DNA from: a virus
Taxonomy: Duplodnaviria; Caudoviricetes
Strand: one strand, 5' to 3'
IMG/VR virus record: IMGVR_UViG_3300017717_000004
Location: 1-60,901 of that record
Length of the DNA: 60,901 bases
Of the stretch, positions 13,001 to 50,017 are shown piece after piece (the stretch's first letter is position 1; every line of letters starts with the position of its first letter). Below the pieces are notes generated by a model. That model was not told where the DNA came from. It was given only the letters and a program-made list of their open reading frames with translations, and ran no database searches. A program made the position numbers and the translations under genes.

Positions 13001-15383
13001 AAATATAGCTATAGTTGAGGGATATGAAAGAAAAGAGGATACTAATAAGCTTATATATAGTGGGCCGTTTAATGAAAACAGCGGATATAATACACTAAAT
13101 GAGTTTAATTCAAGTAGAGGTATAACAAAGTACATGGACATGAAATATGGTTCTATACAAAAGCTTTTTGCAAGGGAATCTGATTTAATAGTTTTTCAAG
13201 AAGACAGAGTTTCAAAGGTCTTGTATGGAAAAAATATACTTACAAGTCCTGACGGAACTGGTAGCTTATCTCAAATAGAACAAGTTTTAGGGCAAGACGT
13301 TCCTTTTTCTGGAGAATACGGTATTTCTTTAAATCCAGAATCTTTTGGCTTTTATGAAGGTAAAATGTATTTCTCAGACGCAAATAGAGGTACTGTTTTA
13401 AGATTGGGAGGAGATGGAATAACACCGATATCTTATATTGGAATGAAATCTTTCTTTAAAGAAAATCTTTACAATAATAAAAATAATTTTAACATAGGTG
13501 GATTTGACCCTAAATATCATCAGTATGTGTTATCAATGAGTAGCGTTCAGATGCCATCAGAACCACTTGAACTTGATTGTGCTTCTGTATTCACAAAAAC
13601 ACTTGCTGGAACATTTACATATAGTTTAAATGTAGGTCAATTCCCAGGAACTGCAACTGTAGGTTACAGCACAACAGGAACTATATCAATTTCTATTGTG
13701 TACAACGGAAATACCTATGGTAGCACAGGTTTGACTGGAACAGGAACTGTTACATTTCCTGTAACATCTAGTGATTTAGAGACAACAAATTTAGCCACCG
13801 TACAAATAACGCCTGTAGGGGTGGTTACTGCAACAATAACTCATGTTTGTCCAGTTCCAGAAACGCTTGAAATAGTTCTTATTGTTGTTAATGATTCACA
13901 AGAAGCGAGTGAAACAATTATAAATAGATATAAGCATAATGGAAGTAACGGGAATAATTATAATTCTGAATTAGATGTATTTGATTTTGATGAATTAACA
14001 AGGTTTGAGACTATATCTGGATTTATGGGAGGAGATGTTATACCAGACAATGGAGATACGGTTACTATTTCCTCATTGAAACAAATAGGAGTTCACACTG
14101 GAGATTTTAATGAGTGTAATAGTTTGGGATATCTTGTTTCTGAGGCCAGTTTAACAGTTCAAAACGTAGTAGACCAGGCCACATATCCAGCAGTTACAAC
14201 CACTACAACTTCCACAGAAGAGGAAAACATTGCAACATTTACATTTAACAGAACTAATACAAGTCAAAAATTGTATTTAGTGTGGAACTATATTGATAAT
14301 CTTCCCGTTTTAGTTAATGATACTGTGACAGGAATTGCTAATGGTGGAAGTAGTGTAATTAATGTAGTAGCTAACGACACAATTCCTTCACCATTCACTA
14401 TTACAATAGGAACACAACCAACAAATGGAACAGCTGTAGTTAATGCTAATAACACTATTACATATACACATACCTCGGGTAACAGTTTAAATGACAGCTT
14501 TACTTATATCGTAAGTAGGGGTGGAGCTTGTACTGCAGAAGCCACTGTAACAACGGAAGCCCTTGCAATTACAGTAGATACATATATTTACATATATTTT
14601 GATGATTCTGGCTCTATGAATAACACAGAGGCAGAGCTCCAAACAATGAGAGCTGGAGCCTTAAAATCCACTCTTCAGGACCTTTACGCAACAGGAGGGA
14701 CTGAATCAAGCGGTAACACAAACACAGCTACTAATGGTAGTGATGAATACGATGCTAAGGTAACTATTGTTTATGGAGCTACTGGGGGGTGGACAAATGA
14801 GAGAACTTTTGCTGCTATTGGTGATAATGACGTTAATGATTTCATAGCCACGAACACACACAACTCGTTTCCTTCAGATGCAGCTAATGTTATAGTAATG
14901 GTTTTCCAAGACGAAGCGAGTGCTGGTTATCACGATTCTAGAACTAGCGGTAGTTTTAATAATGACGCTAGAACAAATAATTATAACACAGATATGGCTG
15001 ATATAAGGTCAAGAGTTACCTCTTTAAACACCTCTAATTCATCTTTTTATAGGGGAGTTGTTTTTCAAGTAGAGGATAATTCAGGAAACCCAGACTATCC
15101 ATTTAAAGCGTTTTTGCAGGCTGTTGAAGGCGGTACTGCTTCAAACTACACAGGAACAAATGGATTAAGTGATTTGATGACAGGAAGCACGCCTACGTTT
15201 GTTTTTGAGTATGATATTGAAGACAGTACAAGCAATGATGCTACTGCTCCATTTAAGCCAGGCTCCACAACTGATAGATTTGACCAATGGCAATATTACT
15301 ATCTATATTGGATGACACACGCACTTAACACGCTAGGATATACACCAGATGGTCAAAGTTGGCCAATAATAATAGACGACTAA
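10035..15383 (+). CDS. Tail nozzle/stabilisation protein with C-terminal Ig-like and vWA-like domains
   Basis: N-terminal GKMNKDVDERL and LFTDGLNPPR, GSIQKL and YFSDANRG segments; Ig-like repeat (VINVVAND..QPTNGTAVVN..DSFTY); MIDAS-like IYIYFDDSGSM. Confidence 0.7.
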   Translation: MKIQNFFNTGKMNKDVDERLVKSGEFLDARNIRVLNTASSDAGAIENERGNVQLTNIPVAQNPKCIGSVSDEAEEKIYWAVVNNVGYSYIFEYDAINDITSTVLADERTGDSQVLNFDSNYKITGFNVVYNASKKSKLLLFTDGLNPPRMVDIKRAKGYGISNFIEDDISLYKKPPRQAPVVKPFNSLNSTENAVKEQFFAFGYRYRYLDGGYSAPSSFSYFQFTPKNFQIDFTSMENKGMDNIFNGYKVTYNSGDKRVTDVQLLFKYSTDSSIFIIDSINKKESSILDDTNETYEFTNKKIFKTLPKDEVFRIFDNVPLTAKAQDFINDRIVFANTTSQYDVVETEGSNDKIKISYDVSLDSVSQEGDELVGTLSASDTKITFDLSGVDLLQDKTITFILKLESAEAGTAPDDYFNGSALIESAFVIGQDYANVTELVASSEFIDCIASMTGIFQSVVITTPPPNPLNLVYGSVTLDSSTSTTFTLLMPVNVHTTDDTPADATDNDDPAFQTDINEVFTLEDGSNLRIKDTVSNVSLKSNRSFEVGLCYLDSHGRYSSILLPKESLGESISEVFVPIANSVNINKLRIKLFNNPPYWADRYKWFVKVNKGLHYNLYATIFYEDQIYRWILLQGANLGKLEVGKNLIVKADDNGPLQQEVKTKILEITTKNATDEVAAGQGWINGNADSSGDPLVELAGTFVKIRPNGFTLDFNPDNFINYSSSRRFGRGGGSGTNTIWIPKGSSSALGLLILGNSGQLDEGLLQKKTSAPGVSPIEWSDIAITPGTQIKLELVYSESDGSPNFNYFKEWTSNNEYVSTPTRNALQLFFDSETNFTKTEDYAMSGYDTATSIRFRVPSLNDENEGFKLVIAKSNSSMAGRWVMRVQATEGTATFESSRLTCNLNLVLVTTLGIFETEPDDIDNDIYYETEETFLIENGLHKGNEQDQTSTLPAISKLGFGNCFSFGNGVESVRVKDDRFLPSFDIKSRPNIAIVEGYERKEDTNKLIYSGPFNENSGYNTLNEFNSSRGITKYMDMKYGSIQKLFARESDLIVFQEDRVSKVLYGKNILTSPDGTGSLSQIEQVLGQDVPFSGEYGISLNPESFGFYEGKMYFSDANRGTVLRLGGDGITPISYIGMKSFFKENLYNNKNNFNIGGFDPKYHQYVLSMSSVQMPSEPLELDCASVFTKTLAGTFTYSLNVGQFPGTATVGYSTTGTISISIVYNGNTYGSTGLTGTGTVTFPVTSSDLETTNLATVQITPVGVVTATITHVCPVPETLEIVLIVVNDSQEASETIINRYKHNGSNGNNYNSELDVFDFDELTRFETISGFMGGDVIPDNGDTVTISSLKQIGVHTGDFNECNSLGYLVSEASLTVQNVVDQATYPAVTTTTTSTEEENIATFTFNRTNTSQKLYLVWNYIDNLPVLVNDTVTGIANGGSSVINVVANDTIPSPFTITIGTQPTNGTAVVNANNTITYTHTSGNSLNDSFTYIVSRGGACTAEATVTTEALAITVDTYIYIYFDDSGSMNNTEAELQTMRAGALKSTLQDLYATGGTESSGNTNTATNGSDEYDAKVTIVYGATGGWTNERTFAAIGDNDVNDFIATNTHNSFPSDAANVIVMVFQDEASAGYHDSRTSGSFNNDARTNNYNTDMADIRSRVTSLNTSNSSFYRGVVFQVEDNSGNPDYPFKAFLQAVEGGTASNYTGTNGLSDLMTGSTPTFVFEYDIEDSTSNDATAPFKPGSTTDRFDQWQYYYLYWMTHALNTLGYTPDGQSWPIIIDD

Positions 15384-18897: not shown

Positions 18898-21800
18898 ATG
18901 ATTGTGAACGAACAAACAACAACACCAGATATCAATACAGAATCTTCTGATGTTACAACAAATACAGCTGTGGTCGAAAATGATTCTCAGAATCAAACTA
19001 ACCCAACAGACCCGCCTATTGTTGTTGATAAAGTGGTTAATTATTTTAAGTCTAAACTTGATAAGGCAGGTAAAAAATATGATGAAAAACTTCTTTACCA
19101 ATACGCAAAAAGAAGCGACTTAAAAACCTTTATAAGAAAGTGGCATGTTTACAATGGATTTGCAAACCAACTGCCATCTCCATCAGAGGTGGATAGTGTC
19201 TACAACACTTGGATAGACCAAAACGCCATTGAAAAAAAAAATCAAAACCAGACTGCACAACAGGTTCTACAGAGCCAACCAAATGTTCAGTCTACAGATT
19301 CGGACTCACCTTCCACATCTACAGATGGAAGCTCTTCATCGGCGCCAAATACAATAAATCTCAGTGAAGAAGATTTAAATAACGCTAGTAACACCAATAC
19401 AGACGAAATAAATCTATATGATTTTGACTCTTGGAAAAAAGAAATAGAGATAAAAGGTATTGGGGGTTATTTAAGTGAAACAAGATATCTTTCCACGATA
19501 GTAAATCAAATTCCTAAAGAGGTTTTTGAAATGAATGAAAGAGATGCGGAAAGAGAATTAAAAAAACTTCTTACGCCATATCAATACGAGGTTTCTCAAG
19601 CTGTTGGCACATCTAATCAGTTAAAAATAAAAACTCCTGACGGAAGAGAGCAGATTATTGAACTATACCCCAACCTTAAAAAACAAAGATTAAATTATAT
19701 TAATGATGGTGGAGTAGAGGATTTGGTAGATAACAGGTTCAAGCAATTTAAAAACTTTTTACTTGGATATGACGATGATGGAAATGTTGTAGGTAATCCA
19801 AACCTTGTTCAAAACATGGCTGATAGGTTTTCTAACTCTAACAATATAATTATAGATATTTTTCAGGAGACTGAAAGATTTGTAACGCCTGAATTAGTTG
19901 ATTTAGAAAATCTAGCAGGGTCTCTTGGTGTTAGTGTTGACACATTTATGAAAGACGGCCTTATAGACTCAAGAAGTGTAGAGCTTGGCATCATATCTGC
20001 TAAAGCAAGCTTACAACAAGTTTATGATGATGCAATAGCGCAGGAACAAAATATATTCAATATAGCGTCTCAAAATGTAAGGTCAAAATTTAAAAACGTA
20101 TATCGTGCTTCTGGAGAAGCCGTAACTACCGAAATCAAAAAAGAAACAGCTTCTTTATTTGAGTCATACGACCCAGATAACAATATTTTTGCAGTAAAAC
20201 AAGCATATAAATATTTAGATGATATGCTTGTGGCGATAAAAGAAAAAAAAGACATAGCTTCTAAATTTATGGGTTCTGCTTTGGCTTTGTCAGGCACTTA
20301 TAAGGGTTTTGATTTAAATGACAGCGTAGGCATGATGTATGCCGTTAGAGCTGGTTTAGATTTGGGAGATATGCCATCAGATGGTATATTGATAAATGGA
20401 CTTCCTTCTTCTGCAAATAGTTTTCAAAATATAGTTACAGACCCACAAGGACTTCATGATATTATGAAGGGTAAAATAAAAATTGAAGTAGACCCAAATA
20501 GTGATGCTTATGGCGTTTTAGCTCCTTATATTTCAGGAGCTTTAAAACTACAGGATAGAAACGAGGCCTACGACTCTACAGGGGGGCTTAAAGGTACAGC
20601 AGGCCAAGCCTTAGCAAATGCTAATATAGCATATGAGTGGGTAGAAGACTTAGTTCAAGGTGTAGGTATTGGTGTTTTAGATATTGGGGCAAACACTGGT
20701 GTTCTGTTTTCAGATGCACTACAAATGATTGGGTTTGATAAAACAACAGCAGATTCAGTGGTTTTTGGAATGTATGGCCTTCCAACGACCCCAGGACTGA
20801 TATCTCCTCAAGAAGTTTTAATGCTTAAAGAATCGGCGTTGCCTTTATACGATAAGCAAATAAAAGATGCGGATAGTTTTGGTGAAATGTTGGCTTTAGT
20901 GAATCAACCATTTTCTCAATCCATACCCTACTTTGCTGCTTTTGCAGTGAATCCAGCACTTGGGCTTACTGTAACAGGAACAAGTTCTTATGGAGCATCG
21001 AAAACAGAGTTTGATAGATTAAAAATGGCGGCGCAAGATGCATTAGATAGGGGAGCAGAGCTAACAGAAAGCCAAAAGAAAATACTATCGGTTGGAGAAT
21101 GGGAAGCCAGAGGCATAGCTTTTTCAAAAGCAGCACAAGAGACAATAATGACAAGGCTTTTTACATATAGATATTTTAAAAGTATGTCTGGAGCTAAAAA
21201 TTTTAGTGGTGCCAAAAACCTTGAAAACGCAAGAAAATTAGCTGAAAGTTTTGAAAAGGTTGCTGTAAAATCAAGAATGGATGGTTTCAAGAAAATGTTT
21301 GGTGTTGATGGGAAAGCTTTACGAAATGAAATTATAGAAGAAGAAATAATAGCACTAAATAACTACACCATAAATGTAATGTGGGGTCTAGAAGAGTATG
21401 ACCAGAAAAAACTTAACGACCTTATGGTTAATACAGGTTTGATATCTGTTTTTTCTTCTACTGCTATGCAAAAGTTTGCGACTTTTGGCATGAATAAAAA
21501 AATTAGAGGAGTTGTTGATAGTACTATAAAAGGGAACATAAAACTAGACTCTGAAAGACAAGTAGTTGAAAACTACCTTAAAGCTGATGTTGATGTTGCT
21601 GTAATAGAACAAGATGCTGAAAAAAATGGAACACCATTAGAGGGAAATGACTCTTATAATTCAGCTCTTCGGATGAGAAGCAAATATCAGGAAGAGTTGA
21701 TGGATATAGAAAATGCAAAGCAAGAGCTCGTAGACAACATGAGTGAATCTGATAAAGCGGCTTATTTGGAGCTTATTATTAGGCTAGAAGAGTCTCATAA

Positions 21801-24800
21801 AATATTAAACTCTGACAAAACCAATACTGAAAAACAGGTTGCACTCGATAATATACCTAAATTACAAGAGTCATTAAGAAGTATTCTTGCGAGAAACCCT
21901 TCTGAATTAGGTTTTCATTTATTGAACAGTAAAACACAGCAAGAGTATTTTGACAAGGCTATGAATATGATTGTGAACGAGGAAAAAGATAAAGCTGTAC
22001 AAGAGGGTAAGGGGGATGATTTTTCTATTGACCTCAGCTCAACAGACCCTATGGTTATTCAAAGAGCTGCTGAGATGTATAAAAATGAATTAGAGACAGG
22101 TCTTAGAAACAACAGAGAATCCTTTTTACCAGCATCTTCATATAATGTTTTAGACCCAACCAAGTACATGGTTGATGTGACTAGGGAGGAAATGGATAAC
22201 TTCAACATACAAGCAAGTATAGAGTCTTTTAGGTTGAAGCAATATAACGCAAAAACTCTTGACGAAAAAGGTGGGAAAAAGCCAGACAACCAAAGAGAAA
22301 ATTTAGAACAGCCTAAAGTTGAGCTAACAACTGAGGGTATTGAAAGACCTGTTACAAAAGAAGATGTTTTATTGCAGCAAAAAATAGACGAGCAACAAGA
22401 GAAAAAAGACAACCTAAAAGAAGACTCTGGTAAAAAACAAACTCTAGGCGAATATAAAACAGAATCAATAGACGACATTGTAAATATTATTGAATCGTTT
22501 GCTATAAATGAAGACTTCATGGCTTCTTTGCCTGAATACCAGCAAAAACATATTGTTAAGTTTTTTAGTGATATTGAACTAGGAAAAGACCCACAATTAG
22601 GTCATGTTAGGTCTATACTAGACTCTCATAGAATTGCTACAGACATATCTGGTAGGTCAGCAGATAAAATAGAAATATTTCAAGCACTAGGGTTTAAAAA
22701 AGACGAAATTGCAAACCTTACAGTAGAGCAAATGTACGCAAAGCTTAATTCTTTGTCTCAAAAATTTGTTACAGCAGGTTTTAATGTGGGAAGCTTTAAG
22801 ACTGGATTTGGTACAGGAGATATAATTCTAAAAACATTGTTTAGAGATAAATATGTTGGAAGTAAATTTTATGACTTATTTAGAAGGGTTAGTAGAAAAG
22901 TTGACGAAAGCAGACAAACAACAAACTTACAATACAAAGAGGCTTTAAGTTTATATGAAAAATTAGTTATAAAACAAAACTCAGAAACAGGAGGCAATAA
23001 GTCTGTAAACCCAAATGATTTAGAAAACTCCTATACTCTTTACATGTTGGCAGGCGGATTTAGGAAGTCTGGCAAAACAAATGAAAAAGGAGTTGATTTA
23101 GAGTTTAGTAGATTTAAAAGCCTTTTATCACAAGAGTTGAGGTTAAGAAAACAAGAGTTTGATTCATCTTCTGGCACAAATAAAGCAAAGTATAAAAAAG
23201 AATATGAAATGTTTAAAAGGGTTTATGATGCTCTTGGATATGAAACAGCAAATAGCTATAGTGAATTAAATGCATCTGAAGCCGATATAAATTTTATTAA
23301 GCGGGTTTCTCTTCTCCAGCCTGGAGATTTAGCCTTGCGAAGAATAACTGATTTCGGAGGCAAACTAGATAACCAAGACAGAGGAACTAGTGTTCCTTTT
23401 GTAGATGGAAGTTATATTCCGATTCCTTTGTTTAAAGGATTTGATTCATCTGGCTCAAGAACGTCGTCTAAAGACGGTGGAGAAGGTTCAAACATAAATG
23501 ACGCTTCAAACCTAATGTCCATAGAGTTTGTAGAAAACCTTTCAGAAGACCTTAGACTAAACCCAGGTATGTTTGCAAAAAATGTTTTTGACAAAATGAA
23601 TGGGGCTTTAACTGACATAAATGCAAGACAGGATGTTGTTACTTTAAAATACCTAATGGACAATCCTAGATTTCAAGAATTGTTTAGCAGTAAAAAAGAA
23701 TATGATGTTTTAGCAGCTTATTTTAAAGGAAGAGAAAAGATTTTTAATAATATTGTGGCACAAGGCAACAATAATGTAGTTGAAGTATCATCTGGCGCTA
23801 AGTATATAATTCCTAAAGTTATAAGAGCGGCTTACAGCACATGGGCGGCAAGAGCACTCGCAAGGTTAGACCAAAGACCATCTCAGTTTTATAGTGCTAT
23901 TAGTGGTACTGCTCCCTACTTAAAATCTAAGTTTGCTAAAAACCATTTAAATAGTGGAACATTTAAGTTTACAGGAGGTCTTTCTACTTTAACAAACGGG
24001 ACAAAGGCTAGAACTATTGTTGGTAAGTATATGCAAAATAGCATGTTTGGAAGGGGTGATTTATCAAATATATACTCAAAATCAAGAACAGGACTTCGTA
24101 ATGCTATTCAAGCAGAATTCCTACTTGACGAAAATCAACAAATACCAACAAGCTATTACTTAAACTTTTTAAACATAAAAGACAAAGATGGCGCCATAAT
24201 AAAAGAAGTAGGAGCTGTATCTACTTTGAACAACTTTATAGATTATATTTCTAAAGGAAGTGAGCTTTCTCTAGATATATTTTTAGCAAGTGCAGATAGA
24301 GCTGCAGCTAATGTAGCTTTTGAGTCTCATTACATAGACGCAAGAGTGAAGCAAGGGGAAAATCTTGAGAATGTTGACATGACGGCGTGGTGGAAAAAAG
24401 AAAATGAAAACCCAAATACTGATGCAATAAACGAAGCTGATGCTTTAGTTGCTCAAACCATGAGACAAACAGGTAAGTTTTCTGAAGCAGATATATATAA
24501 TAACGGAGAGACAGGTCAAAACATATTAAGAGCATTTATACCTTTTCAAAGGTTTATTACAAACGCAAGAGCAAATTTTGCTAATCAAGTAGCTATATTA
24601 AATGACCCAACCATTCCACCAAGTCAAAAATCAGAAGCTAAATCAGCTATACAAGGAATAATTCAGGAAATTATGACTTTTAAAAGTGTAAAGCTTGGTA
24701 GCGCTTTAGTTACCATGAAGGGCTTTGCTGCTGGTATATTAGGATTTGGTTTGTCTGATGATGATATTAGGAGACGTGGGGGTGTTACTCAACTTATTGG

Positions 24801-25647
24801 GGCGGATATGCTTCCTGTTGAGGATAGGCCTGGCTTATTAGAATCAGGTCCAAATGAATACTCTGATTTATTTGGAGATTTACCTCCAGGACAAAAAGAA
24901 ACACTTGAGGCTGACTTTATATCCAAGATGGCTAGTAGAGAGTATGCTTCTATTGAAGGGTTTTCTTATTACATAGGAGAATATGCTAGAGAGTATGAAA
25001 ACAAATTTAAGGTTGGTAATACTTATAGTGTTTTGTCTGCAGCTATTGGTGATGTATTGTTGACAACAAAACCATTCGCACTTCCAAGTGCTGGAGAAAG
25101 TGCTCTTTTAGTTAAGCTAAATGAAATGATGGGTAATGAATTTTTCAATGACTTTGTAAGTAAAGATATTGAAAACGCAAAAACTAAAGGCGGCAGAAGA
25201 GAGTTGATACTTGAAAACTTTTCAGGAGTGTATGGTATAGGTGAAGAACAATATAATAAGGTTGTAGAGGCTTTAGATTTGTATTTTGAAAATGAAGTAA
25301 ACATCTATACAGGGGAATACGGAAATAGAACACAATATGTAGGAGGTGGAAATAATGAAGCTAGAACAAAACAATTAAGAAGCAGTATAGGGTTTTTAGT
25401 TAGCCTTAGAACTCTTGGAGAAAACTTCTTACCAGGCGTTCCTAAAGGCGATTTAATTAAAATAGGTAACTACCTACAGAGAGCTATAGAGAATGAGTTT
25501 AAGACAACTAAAAAAGACCCACTGATGCCTACAATAGATAGAGGTTCGGATTCTGGATTAATAAATGATGCCTATCAGCTACTTAAAGGTCCAAGACAAA
25601 ATAACGAGGAAGAGATAAAAAAATACTTAAAGCAATTTCAAAGGTAA
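18898..25647 (+). CDS. Very large probable internal virion/ejection protein
   Basis: 2249 aa, last gene of the structural operon; no catalytic motif recognised. Confidence 0.55.
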   Translation: MIVNEQTTTPDINTESSDVTTNTAVVENDSQNQTNPTDPPIVVDKVVNYFKSKLDKAGKKYDEKLLYQYAKRSDLKTFIRKWHVYNGFANQLPSPSEVDSVYNTWIDQNAIEKKNQNQTAQQVLQSQPNVQSTDSDSPSTSTDGSSSSAPNTINLSEEDLNNASNTNTDEINLYDFDSWKKEIEIKGIGGYLSETRYLSTIVNQIPKEVFEMNERDAERELKKLLTPYQYEVSQAVGTSNQLKIKTPDGREQIIELYPNLKKQRLNYINDGGVEDLVDNRFKQFKNFLLGYDDDGNVVGNPNLVQNMADRFSNSNNIIIDIFQETERFVTPELVDLENLAGSLGVSVDTFMKDGLIDSRSVELGIISAKASLQQVYDDAIAQEQNIFNIASQNVRSKFKNVYRASGEAVTTEIKKETASLFESYDPDNNIFAVKQAYKYLDDMLVAIKEKKDIASKFMGSALALSGTYKGFDLNDSVGMMYAVRAGLDLGDMPSDGILINGLPSSANSFQNIVTDPQGLHDIMKGKIKIEVDPNSDAYGVLAPYISGALKLQDRNEAYDSTGGLKGTAGQALANANIAYEWVEDLVQGVGIGVLDIGANTGVLFSDALQMIGFDKTTADSVVFGMYGLPTTPGLISPQEVLMLKESALPLYDKQIKDADSFGEMLALVNQPFSQSIPYFAAFAVNPALGLTVTGTSSYGASKTEFDRLKMAAQDALDRGAELTESQKKILSVGEWEARGIAFSKAAQETIMTRLFTYRYFKSMSGAKNFSGAKNLENARKLAESFEKVAVKSRMDGFKKMFGVDGKALRNEIIEEEIIALNNYTINVMWGLEEYDQKKLNDLMVNTGLISVFSSTAMQKFATFGMNKKIRGVVDSTIKGNIKLDSERQVVENYLKADVDVAVIEQDAEKNGTPLEGNDSYNSALRMRSKYQEELMDIENAKQELVDNMSESDKAAYLELIIRLEESHKILNSDKTNTEKQVALDNIPKLQESLRSILARNPSELGFHLLNSKTQQEYFDKAMNMIVNEEKDKAVQEGKGDDFSIDLSSTDPMVIQRAAEMYKNELETGLRNNRESFLPASSYNVLDPTKYMVDVTREEMDNFNIQASIESFRLKQYNAKTLDEKGGKKPDNQRENLEQPKVELTTEGIERPVTKEDVLLQQKIDEQQEKKDNLKEDSGKKQTLGEYKTESIDDIVNIIESFAINEDFMASLPEYQQKHIVKFFSDIELGKDPQLGHVRSILDSHRIATDISGRSADKIEIFQALGFKKDEIANLTVEQMYAKLNSLSQKFVTAGFNVGSFKTGFGTGDIILKTLFRDKYVGSKFYDLFRRVSRKVDESRQTTNLQYKEALSLYEKLVIKQNSETGGNKSVNPNDLENSYTLYMLAGGFRKSGKTNEKGVDLEFSRFKSLLSQELRLRKQEFDSSSGTNKAKYKKEYEMFKRVYDALGYETANSYSELNASEADINFIKRVSLLQPGDLALRRITDFGGKLDNQDRGTSVPFVDGSYIPIPLFKGFDSSGSRTSSKDGGEGSNINDASNLMSIEFVENLSEDLRLNPGMFAKNVFDKMNGALTDINARQDVVTLKYLMDNPRFQELFSSKKEYDVLAAYFKGREKIFNNIVAQGNNNVVEVSSGAKYIIPKVIRAAYSTWAARALARLDQRPSQFYSAISGTAPYLKSKFAKNHLNSGTFKFTGGLSTLTNGTKARTIVGKYMQNSMFGRGDLSNIYSKSRTGLRNAIQAEFLLDENQQIPTSYYLNFLNIKDKDGAIIKEVGAVSTLNNFIDYISKGSELSLDIFLASADRAAANVAFESHYIDARVKQGENLENVDMTAWWKKENENPNTDAINEADALVAQTMRQTGKFSEADIYNNGETGQNILRAFIPFQRFITNARANFANQVAILNDPTIPPSQKSEAKSAIQGIIQEIMTFKSVKLGSALVTMKGFAAGILGFGLSDDDIRRRGGVTQLIGADMLPVEDRPGLLESGPNEYSDLFGDLPPGQKETLEADFISKMASREYASIEGFSYYIGEYAREYENKFKVGNTYSVLSAAIGDVLLTTKPFALPSAGESALLVKLNEMMGNEFFNDFVSKDIENAKTKGGRRELILENFSGVYGIGEEQYNKVVEALDLYFENEVNIYTGEYGNRTQYVGGGNNEARTKQLRSSIGFLVSLRTLGENFLPGVPKGDLIKIGNYLQRAIENEFKTTKKDPLMPTIDRGSDSGLINDAYQLLKGPRQNNEEEIKKYLKQFQR

Positions 25648-26093
25648 TATTTATCCTTTATTATATTAATAACTTCTTGACAGTCCTTTTGATTTCTTGG
25701 TACAAATAAATCAGTACACCATCCTTTTAGATTTATATACCTTTTAAACAACTTCCAAACCAAAGGAAATCTTTCATTTGGATTGCCTTTGCATTCTATT
25801 ATATATCTTGGGGGTACTTGAGTGTCAACAAAGTCTGGAGTGTATGTTATTGGTAGTATTTTTTTATTTCCCCTATCATGAAGATATTTTTTTGTTGGGG
25901 TTTTTTCGTAAGAAGAATGGTCTGAGAAAAATGAATCAATGATTGTGAACTTTTCAGATTCGTAACCAGCTTTAATTTTATTAGCTTTTAGAAGCAGATA
26001 CATATGAGATTCTAGTTTCGACTGAAACTGTATGCCGTCTATTTTTGTTTTTTTAGAGCGAGTTATTTGTCTTCCTTTTTTATATCTTCTCAT
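25638..26093 (-). CDS. PD-(D/E)XK endonuclease (T7 endonuclease I/DUF1064-like; possible Holliday junction resolvase)
   Basis: FQSKLE...YTPDF...IECKG motifs. Confidence 0.8.
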   Translation of the reverse strand: MRRYKKGRQITRSKKTKIDGIQFQSKLESHMYLLLKANKIKAGYESEKFTIIDSFFSDHSSYEKTPTKKYLHDRGNKKILPITYTPDFVDTQVPPRYIIECKGNPNERFPLVWKLFKRYINLKGWCTDLFVPRNQKDCQEVINIIKDKYYL

Positions 26094-26095
26094 TT

Positions 26096-26542
26096 TTATT
26101 CATCTACATCCTCAAGATACATATAATTATCAATATGCATATCATCTAAGTTTTTTATAGCTTGGATAATGTTTTCTGCATATACAACCGTATCAAGATA
26201 CTTTTTAGTTTTGCCATTATCTAAAGAAACAGGAATATATTTTTTTAAATCATTTATTCCATTCCAATACAAAACCTCATTTAAAGCTTGTTCTATTTTA
26301 CTTTTATTTCTTAAATATTCCACAGCCATTTTGTTTGTTATAAAAAATTCTTTTGAAACAAGATAAACATATTCGTCTTTTACACTTACAACCTCAAGAT
26401 TTCCATTCTCATAAACTGATATATATATAAACGAATCATCTAAATATATCTTCAAATCTATGTTAATTAAAGAGTCTCTTACGAAAATCAACTCTGCTTC
26501 ACTAAGGTCTTTGTTTACGAATATTTTTTTTCTAAAGTCCAT
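26096..26542 (-). CDS. Hypothetical protein (start moved to ATG 26542, MDFRKK)
   Basis: The upstream extension in the ORF track overlaps a terminator. Confidence 0.6.
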   Translation of the reverse strand: MDFRKKIFVNKDLSEAELIFVRDSLINIDLKIYLDDSFIYISVYENGNLEVVSVKDEYVYLVSKEFFITNKMAVEYLRNKSKIEQALNEVLYWNGINDLKKYIPVSLDNGKTKKYLDTVVYAENIIQAIKNLDDMHIDNYMYLEDVDE

Positions 26543-26556
26543 AAACAAATTTAATG

Positions 26557-26592
26557 AAAAAACCCTAAGCAATTTTGGCAGAGCTTAGGGTT
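26557..26592 (-). terminator. Intrinsic terminator on the minus strand
   Basis: AACCCTAAGC/GCTTAGGGTT 10-bp stem with an A tract on the + side. Confidence 0.75.
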
Positions 26593-26671
26593 CTTATGAA
26601 TGAAAACAATGTAACAAAGAATAAAACCAAAGACTTATGGTTAGTTAGGGTGTCAAAAGTAATCTTTGTTC
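26557..26671 (-). ncRNA. Candidate small RNA of about 115 nt
   Basis: Bounded by a TATATTTG promoter motif (26676-26683, minus strand) and a terminator; contains GUUUUCAUUCAU. Confidence 0.45.
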
Positions 26672-26688
26672 ATACCAAATATATGAAA

Positions 26689-26868
26689 TTATTCATAAGG
26701 ACTATCACCCCAGCCGAACTCATAGTTAATAGTTACTAACAGAAAGTGCATCTTTACAGTATTGTAAGGCTCTTCTTCTGTTGCTTCGAATGTTTCAAAG
26801 CCAACTATCATTCCTTGATGAGGCCACCTAAATGTCATAGATAACATGTACCAGTTTTTTTCTTCCAT
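26689..26868 (-). CDS. Hypothetical 59-aa protein (MEEKNWYMLS...)
   Basis: Read by hand; starts 1 nt after the stop of the phosphoesterase gene. Confidence 0.6.
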   Translation of the reverse strand: MEEKNWYMLSMTFRWPHQGMIVGFETFEATEEEPYNTVKMHFLLVTINYEFGWGDSPYE

Positions 26869-26869
26869 T

Positions 26870-27967
26870 TTAAAAAATATGTGTTAATCTAGCTACCTGC
26901 CCAAACTTTGGGTGGTGTAAAAATCCTTCTACAGCTTTAGGGTTATGTTGGTATCCATTTCTATGATGCCAAGAATCTGTCCCACTTGGACTTCTTAGGC
27001 TTTCCACAGTAACCCCTGCGTAATCTTTTGCGTTTTTGTGATGGACATGGTGCGTGTACACATACCTATGCTTACACTTGCTCCAAAATTTATTAGCCTC
27101 GACAGCCATAAGTAGAGGTAGGTCTGGAATTTTAGCCCCATCTCCATGTGTTGTCCCTATAAGGTTTTGCCCATAACTATAATATTTTCTATGCTTGATA
27201 CTTACATCAAACGATACATTCTCACAATTTCTAAACCAAGAGGATATGACATCTGCTAAAAAGAATCCGTTTGTGTAATCGTGATTAGAAGGATTGTATG
27301 TTACATGAACATCTGCCACAGATAGCAGGCTTTCTATTACATCAACATAAAGCTTTTTAGCGTTTAAAAAGTTCTCATACCACATTCCATCGGTGTCTTG
27401 TGGTGTACCACTTGTAGTGGTTCTTCTCGGTGTATCTATATGTAATATGTCGTTCCCGATAATTAATAATATTTTTTCTATATTAAATCCTGATGATTTA
27501 CTAAGTATTCCTTTTATACCTTGTTTAACTCTTTTAACTGCTATTTGTTGATTATAATCTTCTCCTGTCTCAAAGCTTGTAGCCAACTTCCCAATATGAA
27601 CATCTGCTGGGTCTAAAACAAGCAGGTGTGGATTAGTTTGTTTATCTCTTTTGATTGGAGCGTATGATGGAGAGTGTTTATCCATCTCACTAATAATCCT
27701 TTTTGAAATATCATTATATGATATAACATTGGGTCTGACTTTTACAGAATATTCTTTTGTTTTATCCCAATATTCTTTGACCGAAGAAAAATCTATACCC
27801 CTCTGCCTACAATACTCATAAACCCCACTATGCCTTATCTTGTTTAGCTCTAATTGTTGTTCTTGGTCAAGATAAACTCTGAACTTTACTCTTCCTGGTT
27901 GAGGTTTTTTTGGTCTTATGCCAAGTGCCTTGGCTTCATCATCTGATAAATAACATCTCTTCTTCAT
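26870..27967 (-). CDS. Calcineurin-like metallophosphoesterase
   Basis: DVHIG, GNDILH, SNHD, THGD and HHVHH metal-binding motifs. Confidence 0.85.
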   Translation of the reverse strand: MKKRCYLSDDEAKALGIRPKKPQPGRVKFRVYLDQEQQLELNKIRHSGVYEYCRQRGIDFSSVKEYWDKTKEYSVKVRPNVISYNDISKRIISEMDKHSPSYAPIKRDKQTNPHLLVLDPADVHIGKLATSFETGEDYNQQIAVKRVKQGIKGILSKSSGFNIEKILLIIGNDILHIDTPRRTTTSGTPQDTDGMWYENFLNAKKLYVDVIESLLSVADVHVTYNPSNHDYTNGFFLADVISSWFRNCENVSFDVSIKHRKYYSYGQNLIGTTHGDGAKIPDLPLLMAVEANKFWSKCKHRYVYTHHVHHKNAKDYAGVTVESLRSPSGTDSWHHRNGYQHNPKAVEGFLHHPKFGQVARLTHIF

Positions 27968-29443: not shown

Positions 29444-29838
29444 AACTTACATTTCTCATTATCCCATCTTCTTCCCAAATAGTTTAGGAAAGATGTTAAT
29501 TTGTATTTATTTTTTGTTTTACCCCATTGATACCTGTGAAAATATTCTGTAACGTAACAAGCGTCTAATGGTATATTGTCGTTCACATCATAAACATCCT
29601 CATATTCTACTTTTAAGACAACACTTTTTTTGGTTCTCCATGAAGATGATATTCTTTCTAACAACAGTCTCTGTCCAAGAGGTATATCTATTCCTTGTTT
29701 CTTAACCTCTATAAGAATTAATATATCATTATCAAACTCTAAAACAGCATCTATGTCACTAGGATGCATTGCTCCATTCTGAACGCCTGTAAAGTCTATA
29801 GCCCTTACTATTTCTTTACTGTTTCTAATTAAGGTCAT
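29440..29838 (-). CDS. Small PD-(D/E)XK-fold protein
   Basis: PSDIDAVL...LIEVK motif. Confidence 0.55.
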   Translation of the reverse strand: MTLIRNSKEIVRAIDFTGVQNGAMHPSDIDAVLEFDNDILILIEVKKQGIDIPLGQRLLLERISSSWRTKKSVVLKVEYEDVYDVNDNIPLDACYVTEYFHRYQWGKTKNKYKLTSFLNYLGRRWDNEKCKF

Positions 29839-30169
29839 CTATTAATCTTATTTTCACATTAGACCACTTACCTCCTTTAATTTTGTAATCCACTAAAAAA
29901 TCTATTCTTTTAACCCACCTCTTATTCATTCTATCCTCAACAGTCCATTCTCCATCCATATCCCCTGCTCCTTCAACGCAAACCTTAGCGCCGAATACAA
30001 ATCCGTATTCTTCTAGGTCTCTTGATACAGCAATCCACCTATGTGAGCCAGGTGATTGTGAATTTATTGTTTTTAGTGATGCCGTTGTTAAATAATCGGC
30101 GTTACATTGTTTGGGGTCGGCGTGATAAATTGTAGCCGTTACCATAATTCCTAATAAAATTGTTTTCAT
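29825..30169 (-). CDS. 3D-domain (MltA-like) cell-wall protein
   Basis: TATIY..IAVSRDL..FGAKV..VEDRM..RIDFLV pattern. Confidence 0.7.
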   Translation of the reverse strand: MKTILLGIMVTATIYHADPKQCNADYLTTASLKTINSQSPGSHRWIAVSRDLEEYGFVFGAKVCVEGAGDMDGEWTVEDRMNKRWVKRIDFLVDYKIKGGKWSNVKIRLIDDLN

Positions 30170-31929
30170 TTGTTTATATTTAATTGTTCAAATTCTAAAT
30201 CTAAGGTTTTTGTAACCTCATAAGGGTTGTTTTTATCCTCCATCCAATTAGTGTTATCCCAAGACACGTTTCCGTTGTCCATCTCAGTATACCTACCATT
30301 GTTCACATTCCACGAAAGTTCTGTGTGTGCTTGGTTTTCACCTAGATTAGCAAACTTAACCTTCAGCACTTTAACTTTTACTGTCGCATTTTCATAATCT
30401 CTATGAACCAGAATTCCATGCGGACTCATGTCATAAAATTCCCCACCTCCTTTAACATCATAAAAAGTAGGCTCTATTAACTTACCCTTATCGTTCTGTG
30501 GTTTAGTTGGGTGTGCCACAATTATGCATATCACATCATTCTTTTTACAAAACGTATCTACTTTATTAAGGTATGCGTTTGTGTAGTCTGTAATGCTTAA
30601 GTTTAAATTGTTTTTATCCCTTATCTTGTTGTAAGGGTCAATTACAAGGCACCTTATACCCACTCTTCTGACTAATTCCTCTCCCTTTTTAAGAACCTTA
30701 TCTAAATCAAACCCATCTTCATAGTCAATAAAAAAAAAGTTTTTATTAATGTGTTCAACACATTTCTTCCAATCTTTCTTCTTTGTTTCTTCATACTTTG
30801 GAGTGTTTCCGTATATTTTCCTCACTAACTTATCTACATGTAGGTATTGTGGATAGTTTTCTGTTGAAGCGTATGCAGTTTTCCAATCATACATCATATT
30901 GTATCCTATTGTCATTTGGTCTACAAAGTCAGACTTACCGCTACTTGGAAAACCTGTAACAACTATAAATTGCTTTGTGTATGTTGAAAATATACCATCA
31001 AAACTATCTAAGCCTATTTTAAAGCCATTCTTTACACCATTTCTATAGAAATCATCAAGTTCCCCAACCATATCAGAAACCCTTAATACGTTTTCTATTG
31101 GACATGGCGTCGCATCATCAATAACTTTAAACAAAGCATCCTTACCATATTTAAGTAAATATTCGTTTGCATCCTTACAGTCTTTAAGGTCGCATAAATA
31201 AACTTTTTCTGAGCCGAATCTTCTTATTAATTCTTTCTTTCCGTTTTCACCTGCTTCATCTGAATCCACACAAATGTATATCTTCTTCTTACTCTCGAAG
31301 TGATAATAGAAATCGTTTAAATAATCTAAATTAACTTGGCCGTTTGCAGTAAAGCCATTAGGCACACTAACAACATTCTTTCTACCACATTCAACAAAAG
31401 ACAAGCAATCAATTTCACCCTCAGTTACTATACAAGTGTCAGAATCAATAATAGAATCCATATTGTAACACATCTTTCTAGCGCCCTTATATAGTTTAAA
31501 GTTTTTTTGTGAATCTCTATACTTTACATTAACAACCGTATTGTTGTATATGTAGTTAAACATTATAACTTTAACTTCTTTACTTACCTGTGGCATATAT
31601 TCAACACCCGCAGTAACACCGCAAGACTGTAGTGTTTCTTTTGATATACCTCTTGAAACAAACCAATCTAATACATTATTTGTTGGCTTATATGTCTTTT
31701 CAATTACAGGAATAACATAGTTGTCGTCTTTTGCTTTTTCATATGTGTGAAGCTGTAACACCTCTCCACAATGTTGACATGTTCCAAGACCCCTGTCCCA
31801 ATCCAACATCAAGCACTTTTGGCTTTTCTTTTTTCTTGTATGACTACACTTTGGACATGTAGACTTCTTTGCTCTTGTATCTAATTTGAATACATTGTAA
31901 TCTTTTATTTCGTAGCCGTTAATATCCAT
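30166..31929 (-). CDS. Primase-helicase (T7 gp4/Twinkle-like)
   Basis: Zn finger CPKC..CQHC, TOPRIM EGEIDCLS and DSDEAG, Walker A GFPSSGKS, IDPYN, VAHP. Confidence 0.92.
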   Translation of the reverse strand: MDINGYEIKDYNVFKLDTRAKKSTCPKCSHTRKKKSQKCLMLDWDRGLGTCQHCGEVLQLHTYEKAKDDNYVIPVIEKTYKPTNNVLDWFVSRGISKETLQSCGVTAGVEYMPQVSKEVKVIMFNYIYNNTVVNVKYRDSQKNFKLYKGARKMCYNMDSIIDSDTCIVTEGEIDCLSFVECGRKNVVSVPNGFTANGQVNLDYLNDFYYHFESKKKIYICVDSDEAGENGKKELIRRFGSEKVYLCDLKDCKDANEYLLKYGKDALFKVIDDATPCPIENVLRVSDMVGELDDFYRNGVKNGFKIGLDSFDGIFSTYTKQFIVVTGFPSSGKSDFVDQMTIGYNMMYDWKTAYASTENYPQYLHVDKLVRKIYGNTPKYEETKKKDWKKCVEHINKNFFFIDYEDGFDLDKVLKKGEELVRRVGIRCLVIDPYNKIRDKNNLNLSITDYTNAYLNKVDTFCKKNDVICIIVAHPTKPQNDKGKLIEPTFYDVKGGGEFYDMSPHGILVHRDYENATVKVKVLKVKFANLGENQAHTELSWNVNNGRYTEMDNGNVSWDNTNWMEDKNNPYEVTKTLDLEFEQLNINK

Positions 31930-33685: not shown

Positions 33686-34498
33686 TTAAATCTCGCCATA
33701 GACTGTAAAATTTTCAAGTCTGTGACTTTTATTAACAAAATATTTTAAATAATTCTCTTCAGCTTTTGATACCTTTTCTCTACCTCTGTCATAGGCATCA
33801 TCAGAAACTTCATACAAACCAACACAACCTGTTCCTTTTTCAATAACAAGGAACTTCATTGGCTTTTGAAACATTGTTGAGTATATAAAGGCTTGACTAT
33901 CGTAATTATAAGCCTTGCTGCTATACTTAAAACCTCCAAGCGAACTTGATGTTTTTATATCAATCAAACAATCTTCTGTAACAATGTCTGCTTTACATTT
34001 CCATAAAACATCGCTATCTGTGTGTCCCATAGTTCCAAAATTTGGGACTTCATATTTAGATTTTTTGTTGTTTAAAAACTGCTTTACTGTTTCGTTCTTT
34101 AAAGAGGTGTCAACTAAAAGATTTAGGTCGTCCCATTCTTTTTTAAGAAAAATTAAACCACCTGCCTCAGCTGAAGCTTCTTTGTACTTATTAGTGTTTC
34201 TTGTAGAGGCTTCAATATAATTGTCGTTTTGAGTTTTTCCAAACATAATAAGTTCGTGAAAGGCTCTACCAAACATTAAATTAACACTATCTTCTCTTGG
34301 CTCAGAATACTGCGTTGGGTTGTTTATAAGCTGACTAATGTTAGAGTTTGATAAAAACTTACCACCATAGTCCCCATAATAATGCTCATCGCTTGAAAGC
34401 TTTGCCAAAACTTCTTCTCTATTTCTGTATGTCCAATGCTGTCCAGCTGTCATTCCATGTGGAGTTGAGTCCACTATGTAATCCCCTACTTTTTCCAT
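33686..34498 (-). CDS. RecE-like PD-(D/E)XK exonuclease
   Basis: FGRAFH, KCKADIV..DIKTS, YDSQAFIY. Confidence 0.8.
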   Translation of the reverse strand: MEKVGDYIVDSTPHGMTAGQHWTYRNREEVLAKLSSDEHYYGDYGGKFLSNSNISQLINNPTQYSEPREDSVNLMFGRAFHELIMFGKTQNDNYIEASTRNTNKYKEASAEAGGLIFLKKEWDDLNLLVDTSLKNETVKQFLNNKKSKYEVPNFGTMGHTDSDVLWKCKADIVTEDCLIDIKTSSSLGGFKYSSKAYNYDSQAFIYSTMFQKPMKFLVIEKGTGCVGLYEVSDDAYDRGREKVSKAEENYLKYFVNKSHRLENFTVYGEI

Positions 34499-34890
34499 GA
34501 CGCATCCTTTCTTTTAAAGTCGTCGCTTTCATCTTCAGAAAAGACACCCAACTCGTAAAATCCTGTTAACTTAAGCACTGCACGAGACATTGCCCTTTTT
34601 TCTGCCATTTCCATTACATACCATGTGTTGCAATTTCCGTCCCTATGACTTGTTCCTTTTAGTGCTGAACCAAAAGTTTGTATTGTGTTGCCACTTGCAT
34701 CTGCATTTGCTTTTACAACGCAGTAATTTGGTTCGCAATTTATCACATCATAAGTGATTGTGATTTTTTCAACTGCCTGGATTCTGTCAATCCCAGACCT
34801 TGTGATGATTATGTAATGTTGATGCTTGAACACATCGTCTTTGCTTAAACCATACTTTTGGTATAAGGCTTTTAGTTTATCTGTTTTCAT
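34486..34890 (-). CDS. Probable single-strand annealing protein (Rad52/Erf-like fold)
   Basis: EMAEKRAMSRAVLKL..FSEDE motif adjacent to the exonuclease. Confidence 0.55.
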   Translation of the reverse strand: MKTDKLKALYQKYGLSKDDVFKHQHYIIITRSGIDRIQAVEKITITYDVINCEPNYCVVKANADASGNTIQTFGSALKGTSHRDGNCNTWYVMEMAEKRAMSRAVLKLTGFYELGVFSEDESDDFKRKDASWKK

Positions 34891-34912
34891 TCTTACTATA
34901 TTTAATTATTAA

Positions 34913-34920
34913 CAAATTTA
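34913..34920 (-). promoter_or_regulatory. -7 promoter element TAAATTTG
   Basis: Upstream of the recombination/replication operon start at 34890. Confidence 0.55.
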
Positions 34921-35346: not shown

Positions 35347-35569
35347 TTTCGTCTCCATCTTCCATAAGTGTTTTGAGTTTAAATATTTTTTCATCGAGTG
35401 CGTCGCATAGTAATTTTACATACTCAGCATCTTCTTTTTCTCCATAGTTATTTTCTGCCTCCCAAACATTATGAAGAAACTTACTACTTTCTTTTGTTAG
35501 TTGTAGGAGTTCTGTTAACTCTTTTCTAAGTGCTTTGTTTTCCAAAGACAATATTTCATTAATTCCCAT
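35336..35569 (-). CDS. Hypothetical protein
   Basis: ORF in the early region. Confidence 0.55.
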   Translation of the reverse strand: MGINEILSLENKALRKELTELLQLTKESSKFLHNVWEAENNYGEKEDAEYVKLLCDALDEKIFKLKTLMEDGDENVS

Positions 35570-35714
35570 GTCTACTTAATTTAATTGTTTCTATTTCTCC
35601 ATGCTCGGCACTATCAACATAGTTTTGTGCTGACTTTTCGCATAGCGTTGTTACTGTTCTGTTTGGCATTTCGCCACCATAGTACAAGTGTACTTTATAC
35701 ATTGTTTCATTCAT
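35559..35714 (-). CDS. Hypothetical 51-aa protein (MNETMYKVHL...)
   Basis: Read by hand; fills the gap between neighbouring minus-strand ORFs. Confidence 0.55.
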   Translation of the reverse strand: MNETMYKVHLYYGGEMPNRTVTTLCEKSAQNYVDSAEHGEIETIKLSRHGN

Positions 35715-35720
35715 ATCTTT

Positions 35721-40349: not shown

Positions 40350-40655
40350 TTATATTTTCATTGTGTGATAATATTGTATAAAGCTTGTTGTATATAGCGC
40401 ACCAATAAATAACCAAACAGGCGAAGTGAATAGTATTTGTGTTGTTGAAAAACTACTTATGATATGTGATAGTAGCGCCATACTACTAAACACAAACAAC
40501 CAATACATAAATGATATGAATACTTTCATATATGTGTTGAGGTTTAGATTTTCTGTTGTCGTACTATCAGCTATAGTGATTGTGATTGCACCGTTCCTAC
40601 TTTTTTTCTGAACGGTTGTGATGCCTGTAGGCAAAGTTTTAGTGATTGTTTTCAT
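40350..40655 (-). CDS. Hypothetical membrane protein with two TM helices
   Basis: Two hydrophobic segments in the C-terminal half. Confidence 0.6.
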   Translation of the reverse strand: MKTITKTLPTGITTVQKKSRNGAITITIADSTTTENLNLNTYMKVFISFMYWLFVFSSMALLSHIISSFSTTQILFTSPVWLFIGALYTTSFIQYYHTMKI

Positions 40656-40827: not shown

Positions 40828-40841
40828 AATTATAAATTTTG

Positions 40842-40915
40842 TAGCGCCTGTAGGATTCGAACCTACATTTGCATCGTGAAAGGATGATGTCCTAAACCAA
40901 TTAGACGAAGGCGCC
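40842..40915 (-). tRNA. tRNA-Glu (anticodon TTC), CCA not encoded
   Basis: GGCGCCT/AGGCGCT acceptor stem, D loop with GG, anticodon loop CTTTCAC, T arm GTAGG-TTCGAAT-CCTAC. Confidence 0.92.
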
Positions 40916-49983: not shown

Positions 49984-50017
49984 TAAAAGGTATTTAGATT
50001 TTTATTAAATTTGAAAA

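Follow-up and report, generated by a model that had tools for sequence, protein, structure and literature searches.

A putative small RNA gene of marine flavobacterial phages with a conserved core complementary to gene start regions

Only a handful of RNAs, all of them chromosomal, are known to act in post-transcriptional control in Bacteroidota, and a 146-nt gap between two genes of a flavobacterial phage raises the question of whether a phage of such hosts carries a small RNA gene and, if so, which messages its product might recognize. The gap lies in IMG/VR record IMGVR_UViG_3300017717_000004, a phage genome of 60,901 bp with a G+C content of 33.8%, the whole of which was analysed and is called the window here. 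It separates a 59-aa gene (26689..26868) from a 148-aa gene with its ATG at 26542, both on the minus strand, and the 148-aa gene is followed by the gene for a DUF1064-type resolvase. The plus strand encodes terminase, portal, and structural proteins up to 25647; a minus-strand block running from about 42.3 down to 25.6 kb encodes a primase/helicase, a PD-(D/E)XK nuclease, a MazG-like protein, a DNA repair exonuclease, and the resolvase; and a second plus-strand block lies beyond it. Among cultured phages, Baltic Flavobacterium phages and Tenacibaculum phages come closest, with likeness at the protein level only, and the phage is likely a marine flavobacterial one with hosts in the same bacterial family as Flavobacterium psychrophilum. 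A single tRNA gene, tRNA-Glu (anticodon UUC), is located within the minus-strand block at 40841-40915 (minus strand), and a GroEL-type chaperonin is encoded at 43169-44764 on the plus strand (PHROG 5725, E = 1.6e-132). Two plus-strand genes are very large, 10035-15383 (1782 aa), whose product matches a PHROG of virion structural proteins, and 18898-25647 (2249 aa), which ends 10 nt within the convergent resolvase gene (25638..26093, minus strand).

The original prediction placed in this gap a minus-strand unit with its own promoter motif, a 5' stem, an unpaired segment, and a terminator, and proposed that its RNA is antisense to start regions of phage genes. All of its coordinates and letters match the sequence, and the parts of the unit, together with a second box behind it, are as follows.

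26557-26683, minus strand: whole unit, with -7 box, 5' hairpin, exposed segment, and intrinsic terminator; about 115 nt
26683..26676, minus strand: -7 promoter box TATATTTG of the Bacteroidota sigma-A type, recognized by its sequence
26613..26670, minus strand: predicted 5' hairpin with a large loop, stem arms AACAAAGA (26670..26663) and TCTTTGTT (26620..26613), from folding
26596..26612, minus strand: exposed segment ACAUUGUUUUCAUUCAU, with the core GUUUUCAU at 26607..26600
26592..26557, minus strand: intrinsic terminator, 10-bp stem AACCCUAAGC-12 nt-GCUUAGGGUU-UUUU, loop UCUGCCAAAAUU, U-run 26562..26557
26546..26553, minus strand: second box TAAATTTG, 3 nt ahead of ATG 26542 of the 148-aa gene

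According to PMC6847099, the -7 box of Flavobacterium johnsoniae spans -12 to -5; with the G of the box at -5, the RNA is therefore predicted to start near 26671 and to be about 110-115 nt long. The 126-nt minus-strand RNA folds in silico into two hairpins, the 5' hairpin and the terminator (-29.7 kcal/mol, z = -5.06), and none of 200 shuffled sequences was as stable; the 5' hairpin of this phage alone has z = -2.27. The 18-nt segment at 26613..26596 (minus strand) reads UACAUUGUUUUCAUUCAU. Its earlier description as unpaired is apt for the relatives, in which the GUUUUCA(U) core is mostly unpaired (probability at least 0.6 in 25 of 28 versions), but not fully for this phage, where the exposed segment is only half accessible (mean unpaired probability 0.54) as its UUCAUA can be sequestered by UAUGAA at the 5' end.

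Intergenic small RNA genes are usually identified, as described in PMC7366714, by a terminator that follows a promoter box without any conserved frame in the intervening sequence. Boxes of the form TAHHTTTG are commoner in non-coding DNA, 17 of 61 falling within the 7.8% non-coding share of the genome, and most of those within 30 nt of a start end 14-26 nt ahead of the start codon, in contrast to the box of the unit, which is 133 nt from the next start codon. The sigma-70 consensus does not fit the host, as a scan with it returned 89 promoter-like sites against 93.9 expected. Among 13 hairpin-plus-T-runs genome-wide, the terminator of the unit is the fourth strongest and one of about four strong ones; it is also the sole such element on the minus strand between 25.6 and 42.3 kb. 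A terminator scan with a loop limit of 8 nt missed it, its loop being 12 nt long.

Relatives were gathered through the exonuclease gene, which yielded 80 IMG/VR loci, and the gap could be aligned by blastn in 34 of them. Three conserved islands stand out in the gap alignment, namely the TAnnTTTG box, TTTGTTTTCAT followed by the hairpin and T-run, and TTAAATTTG directly before the next ATG. A covariance model, R1, was built on the conserved string and the terminator. In the covariance search of relatives, which had been proposed as a check on the prediction, R1 found a single copy in the 60.9-kb genome and one, in the corresponding position, in each of 50 of the 80 loci (L001-L046, L048-L051), which represent 36 distinct versions of the unit; nine of the positive loci were outside the training set and have quite different flanks. 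The 30 loci negative for R1 are the most distant ones, and the core and terminator are absent from the 21 distinct sequences checked among them.

Within the positive loci, the terminator stem is paired in 94.8% of cells, against 24.6-75.0% with slid partners, and five pairs have changed on both sides (covariation). The 5' hairpin persists with unrelated stem sequences between subgroups, with a median z of -2.4 and values below -1.64 in 22 of 32 units. Among these 32 distinct units, the -7 box reads TAnnTTTG in 27, where it lies 68-114 nt upstream of the U-run, and TATCTTTA in five, and the RNA in relatives would be about 68-116 nt long. TGTTTTCA is invariant across 27 aligned units, and the core of the 36 distinct units reads GTTTTCAT in 29, GTTTTCAC in three, GTTTTCAA in three, and a degenerate form in one, so that GTTTTCA is kept in 35 and is followed by T (29), C (3), or A (3). 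The 12-15 nt loop of the terminator (26571-26582, minus strand) keeps CUGCCAAAA, or CGGCCAAGAAA in two types, above the covarying stem in L001-L014, L029, and L034-L037, and a loop so long and so conserved is unusual for a plain terminator. The loop complement TTTTGGCAG has no exact second site in the genome, and its one-mismatch sites occur at chance frequency (27 against 22.5 expected).

The same comparison bears on a coding explanation, as the plus-strand ORF from 26596 had been named as the feature that might be conserved in place of an RNA. On this account, selection would act on a tiny plus-strand ORF beginning at the complement of CAU (Met-Lys-Thr and onward), or on the 47-codon ORF from 26596, and the complement of the core is indeed always an NTG start codon followed by AAA AC. 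The opposite-strand frame, however, ranges from 3 to 73 codons with a median of 7 and does not exceed 15 codons in 29 of 36 units, yielding peptides such as MKTK, MKTM, and MKTNNKE before the stop; the 47-codon frame, which lacks a Pfam match, is found in this phage only, and the plus strand carries no promoter box there, which makes a coding function extremely improbable. Frames on the same strand differ between the window and L024, the two units compared by inspection. The plus-strand ORF is thus not what is conserved; the comparison favours the minus-strand unit with its own -7 box, 5' hairpin, exposed segment, and terminator as a putatively non-coding element conserved in relatives.

A conserved terminator at this position could also belong to an ordinary operon end, in which the hairpin and U-run close the long minus-strand transcript, the RNA features serve as a 3' UTR stability or processing element, the upstream box is weak or silent, and transcription of the last two genes begins anew at the box at 26553..26546. 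Consistent with this, the unit holds the only strong terminator of the minus-strand block, and the second box ahead of the next ATG is widely conserved, as T(T/A)A(A/C)ATTTG is found 1-4 nt upstream of the ATG in 40 of 80 loci. Four oligo-dT metatranscriptome runs contain near-identical phage fragments at depths of 0-10 from both strand blocks, with contig ends and gaps that are unreadable as RNA ends; one contig, 26509-26748, covers the end of the upstream gene, the entire unit, and the sequence beyond the terminator, and may derive from DNA. An operon end leaves unexplained why a -7 box just past the stop codon is kept in 27 of 32 versions, why a 5' hairpin is maintained through complete sequence turnover, and why a 7-8 nt exposed core is invariant, and we regard it as a possible but rather unlikely account of the whole unit. 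A small RNA gene and an operon 3' end are compatible, since the RNA could arise both from its own promoter and by processing.

The position of the unit also invites a cis-acting explanation. The terminator ends 14 nt ahead of the next ATG, and the order of promoter, short RNA, terminator, and gene resembles that of the promoter-proximal terminated RNAs of lambdoid phages; the unit might accordingly be a regulated leader of the genes for the 148-aa protein and the DUF1064-type resolvase, acting as an attenuator or as a promoter-proximal terminator that is read through with a phage factor. By inspection, the folds and the alignment reveal no conserved pairing that would compete with the terminator, and the short versions have no spare sequence for it; the partial repeat ACCCUAA of the 5' loop is likewise missing, by inspection, from the short versions. 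The downstream starts vary (AUGGAC, AUGAGA, AUGAAU, and others) and lack complementarity to the core, and the downstream gene has its own box, so that a leader function appears distinctly unlikely. Primase/helicase, exonuclease, and resolvase genes in the neighbourhood would suit a replication-origin transcript, that is, a primer or activator RNA. The efficient-looking terminator argues instead for a discrete, released RNA, the core has no link to replication, and inspection of the sequence gave no sign of an origin, leaving this reading very improbable. Mimicry of a tRNA anticodon loop and an anti-terminator repeat were each considered and dropped, as neither is conserved by eye.

If the unit is a small RNA gene, its most constrained part suggests what the RNA might recognize. 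The core GUUUUCAU is the exact complement of AUGAAAAC. The string ATGAAAAC occurs 13 times on the two strands of the genome, once as the complement of the core itself and three times at gene starts, all of which are in the minus-strand block. The matches between the segment and gene starts are listed here.

30159..30170, minus strand: start of gene 29825..30169, 12-nt match; signal-peptide-like N terminus
40645..40655, minus strand: start of gene 40350..40655, 11-nt match
34882..34892, minus strand: start of gene 34486..34890 (GAAUGAAAACA), 11-nt match; best conserved candidate target
35698..35715, minus strand: start of the 51-aa gene 35559..35714, 17 of 18 nt with one bulged A, and an extra pair at 35715

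These are the four starts named in the original prediction, and each match is borne out by the sequence. Whether they exceed the AT-rich background could be judged against three controls, in all of which matches of at least 11 contiguous nt at three starts are rare: 0.25% of 2000 shuffled seeds and 0.1% of random genomic 18-mers reach this number, and none of 72 antisense copies of other gene starts equals it.

Comparison with relatives separates the four starts. No other non-self duplex in the genome is as stable as that at 35714 (-22.7 kcal/mol, against a genome mean of -7.8 and a standard deviation of 3.0), and this match had been the strongest one named. It proved specific to this phage: in the five relatives examined, the match is missing throughout and the cognate duplex reaches only -10.8 to -12.5 kcal/mol, and gene 35714 was rejected as a conserved target. 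The two sites, 35698-35715 (minus strand) and 26595-26613 (plus strand), form an 18-nt inverted near-repeat with one base missing, in this phage only, and relatives have ATGTAT or ATGTAC where this phage has ATGAAT; the match is peculiar to this phage and could be due to a recent, concerted change of the two sites, or else to chance. For gene 30169, used as a control, ATGAAAAC is present in 25 of 35 homologues, which show no lineage matching to the RNA (9.22 nt for cognate against 9.20 nt for non-cognate pairs, P = 0.50). At gene 40655, ATGAAAAC is kept in three of four relatives. A count of ATGAAAAC at ORF starts in loci with the RNA (17 of 349) and without it (5 of 205) was set aside, the ORFs not being independent.

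Gene 34486..34890 (minus strand; 134 aa), called gene 34890 from here on, is the first gene of a unit with a -7 box TAAATTTG at 34920..34913 and overlaps the next gene, which encodes the PD-(D/E)XK nuclease. Its product has no Pfam family and no PDB relative, and searches gave only a weak PHROG match and weak Atlas leads to annealing proteins. A TAnnTTTG box is found 22-35 nt upstream of gene 34890 homologues in 12 of 15 lineages, and the gene therefore appears to head a transcription unit with a short leader, its message being predicted to start near 34908 in the window. The string ATGAAAAC at its start is kept in all five relatives first examined. The flanks of the core and of this start carry matched strings that differ between lineages, with GAAUGAAAACA in the window, UCUUAUGAAAAC in the L216 type, (A)AUAUGAAAACA in the L215 and G003 types, GAUGAAAACA in L227, and AUUAUGAAAA in L240 and G013; in the last two, a C in the target is replaced by a U that is still able to pair with G.

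Permutation of the partners measured how far each RNA fits the gene 34890 start of its own lineage. Among 10 lineages, none of 100,000 permutations was as good as the observed pairing; among 16 lineages, P was 0.00055; and among 12 lineages, with one kept per close pair, P was 0.002 by length and 0.02 by energy. When the 15-35 ORF starts of the available sequence were ranked in each of 10 phages, gene 34890 came first in six, second in two, and third in two. The lineage effect is nevertheless small, with a mean contiguous match of 9.9 nt for cognate and 9.0 nt for non-cognate pairs (a difference of about 1 nt), and the cognate target is strictly the best in only 4 of 12 lineages, with three lineages retaining the 8-nt core only. 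Lineage matching is thus a suggestive sign, drawn from sequence comparison, of pairing between the RNA and the 34890 message rather than proof of it. The ATG-AAA-ACA starts may also be explained by a conserved Met-Lys-Thr N terminus in AT-rich genomes, and homologues of gene 34890 carry ATGAAAAC in 4 of the 23 loci without a detectable RNA, which indicates that the Met-Lys-Thr start is independent of the RNA. An association of RNA presence with this start (12 of 14 loci against 4 of 23) was dropped as evidence, as it is confounded by relatedness.

Lineage matching also bears on the possibility that the unit is a small RNA in which GUUUUCAU is not a pairing seed but a protein-binding site, serving as a decoy or sponge that captures an RNA-binding protein of the host or of the phage, or a component of the ribosome. 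The core is short (7-8 nt) and U-rich with freely varying flanks, the loop CUGCCAAAA is also conserved in the long-loop versions with no exact complement elsewhere in the genome, and the protein RbpB binds small RNAs in Bacteroides, according to PMC11697453. A pure protein site does not predict that the flanks fit the cognate 34890 start better than non-cognate ones, and there is no candidate protein, which together make this alternative unlikely.

From the conservation, structure, promoter box, terminator, and complementarity observed here, we infer that the unit is transcribed and that its RNA pairs with messages in the cell and represses them. The reading we prefer, with a probability of roughly 0.5, is that the replication and recombination module contains an independent small RNA gene, the seed of which pairs with start regions to lower translation. 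Host RNA polymerase would start at the Bacteroidota-type -7 box and end at the intrinsic terminator, releasing an RNA composed of the 5' hairpin, the exposed segment with the core GUUUUCAU, and the terminator hairpin. The exposed segment would pair with AUGAAAAC and flanking bases at the starts of selected messages, covering positions -3 to +8 of the 34890 message and probably other AUGAAAAC starts too. The host presumably relies on an unstructured, A-rich start region without Shine-Dalgarno pairing (PMC6847099, PMC7366714), and the duplex would keep the ribosome away from the start codon and the codons just after it, reducing translation. Output of the 34890 protein would fall and, through coupling, so would that of the downstream nuclease. 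The conserved target is most likely gene 34890, the first gene of the promoter-led unit that includes the PD-(D/E)XK nuclease, and further phage genes and possibly host genes starting with Met-Lys-Thr may be targets as well. We know of no chaperone for such pairing, and this was counted against the mechanism.

A broader form of this proposal, close to that of the original prediction, is that the RNA represents a class of phage "anti-start" riboregulators for hosts that do not use Shine-Dalgarno sequences, in which GUUUUCAU would mask the AUG and the next five bases of many Met-Lys-Thr messages, including those of the phage recombination unit and of host secreted and membrane proteins. The complementarity of the core to AUGAAAAC and the lineage matching at gene 34890 speak for this idea, but the 35714 match is absent from relatives and the 30169 start shows no lineage matching. 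The last core base also varies (U in 29, C in 3, A in 3, and degenerate in 1 of 36 units), so that the pair with the A of AUG is not maintained in every unit, which was counted against the preferred reading. We consider so general a class improbable; if it did exist, a single RNA of about 70-115 nt would reshape host translation in infected marine Flavobacteriia.

Several described systems resemble the proposed RNA in part. GibS and FopS of Bacteroides thetaiotaomicron are base-pairing RNAs that, as described in PMC7366714 and PMC11697453, pair over the start region of the first gene of polycistronic messages, block initiation, and repress translation, and their size of about 65-70 nt is like that of the short versions of the phage RNA. 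They differ from it in being chromosomal, in controlling glycan use, and in having the seed at the very 5' end, whereas the putative seed of the phage-borne RNA lies between the 5' hairpin and the terminator; unlike theirs, its core is the complement of AUG and the following five bases, and it has no FopS or GibS match in Rfam. VpdS of Vibrio phage VP882 and PreS of lambda are short RNAs that phages transcribe from a dedicated promoter to a terminator and that pair during infection with both phage and host messages (PMC12197685; 10.1101/2024.10.31.621285). As presented in PMC12197685, VpdS and PreS need Hfq and act in Proteobacteria that use Shine-Dalgarno sequences, unlike the setting considered here. 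Rfp18 and other small transcripts of F. psychrophilum are structured, have TAnnTTTG promoters, and are predicted to pair with several messages; by the description in PMC9723704, they are chromosomal, unlike the phage RNA, and Rfp18 has its pairing region in a stem-loop. Lambda OOP and P22 sas are small terminated phage RNAs that control the translation or stability of phage messages, but they are encoded opposite their targets and are fully complementary to them (PMC12197685), whereas some 8.3 kb separate the present RNA from its best candidate target, with which it has only 9-12 nt in common.

A scan of 25500-27500 against Rfam at E values up to 10 gave six matches, all far under the gathering scores, and no Bacteroides small RNA was among them. 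Searched by blastn against 50,697 phage records, the 171-nt region returned chance matches only (16 records, E at least 0.5). Cultured Flavobacterium and Tenacibaculum phages possess the exonuclease and gene 34890 but group with the loci without the RNA. A pattern scan of bacterial genomes found at least 120 stretches over unrelated phyla; R1, applied to 80 of them, scored 37 bits at best despite the motif pre-selection, and five inspected stretches had no common -7 box or context. These bacterial matches are treated as chance, with no convincing host copy among the stretches listed, and the small RNA lists of PMC9723704 and PMC7366714 could hold a related host RNA. Searches of the literature turned up no description of a Bacteroidota phage that encodes a small RNA, and the word starts "Bacteroid" and "Flavobacter" are absent from a 2025 review of phage small RNAs (PMC12197685). 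The RNA would thus be a new family of a known kind, an intergenic trans-acting small RNA, the gene being well supported by comparison and the mechanism moderately so. The family is short, abundant in marine viral contigs, and equipped with a clear seed that lends itself to testing and with a specific candidate target. It would open a way to study start-site regulation where there is no Shine-Dalgarno sequence to mask, and would show how marine flavobacterial phages time their recombination genes.

Start regions of this phage carry further motifs. Boxes of sequence TAAATTTG at 26546-26553 (minus strand) and 50006-50013 (plus strand) stop just 3-4 nt short of the ATGs at 26542 and 50018, and with their G at -5, transcription would begin from or next to the A of the ATG, giving leaderless messages; such messages are rare in Flavobacterium, at 5.5% in F. 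psychrophilum according to PMC9723704. The box at 26546..26553 is either the promoter of a leaderless message or part of a TTAAAT start-context motif of the phage. TTAAAT is present in the 30 nt upstream of 12 of 72 gene starts, compared with 2.1 +/- 1.4 in random 30-mers, and AATTAAAT is present upstream of 6 of 72, compared with 0.2 in controls. The TTAAAT motif always begins at -16 to -9, occurs before the candidate targets 34890 and 30169, and could be a phage-specific start-site or promoter signal for a host without Shine-Dalgarno sequences.
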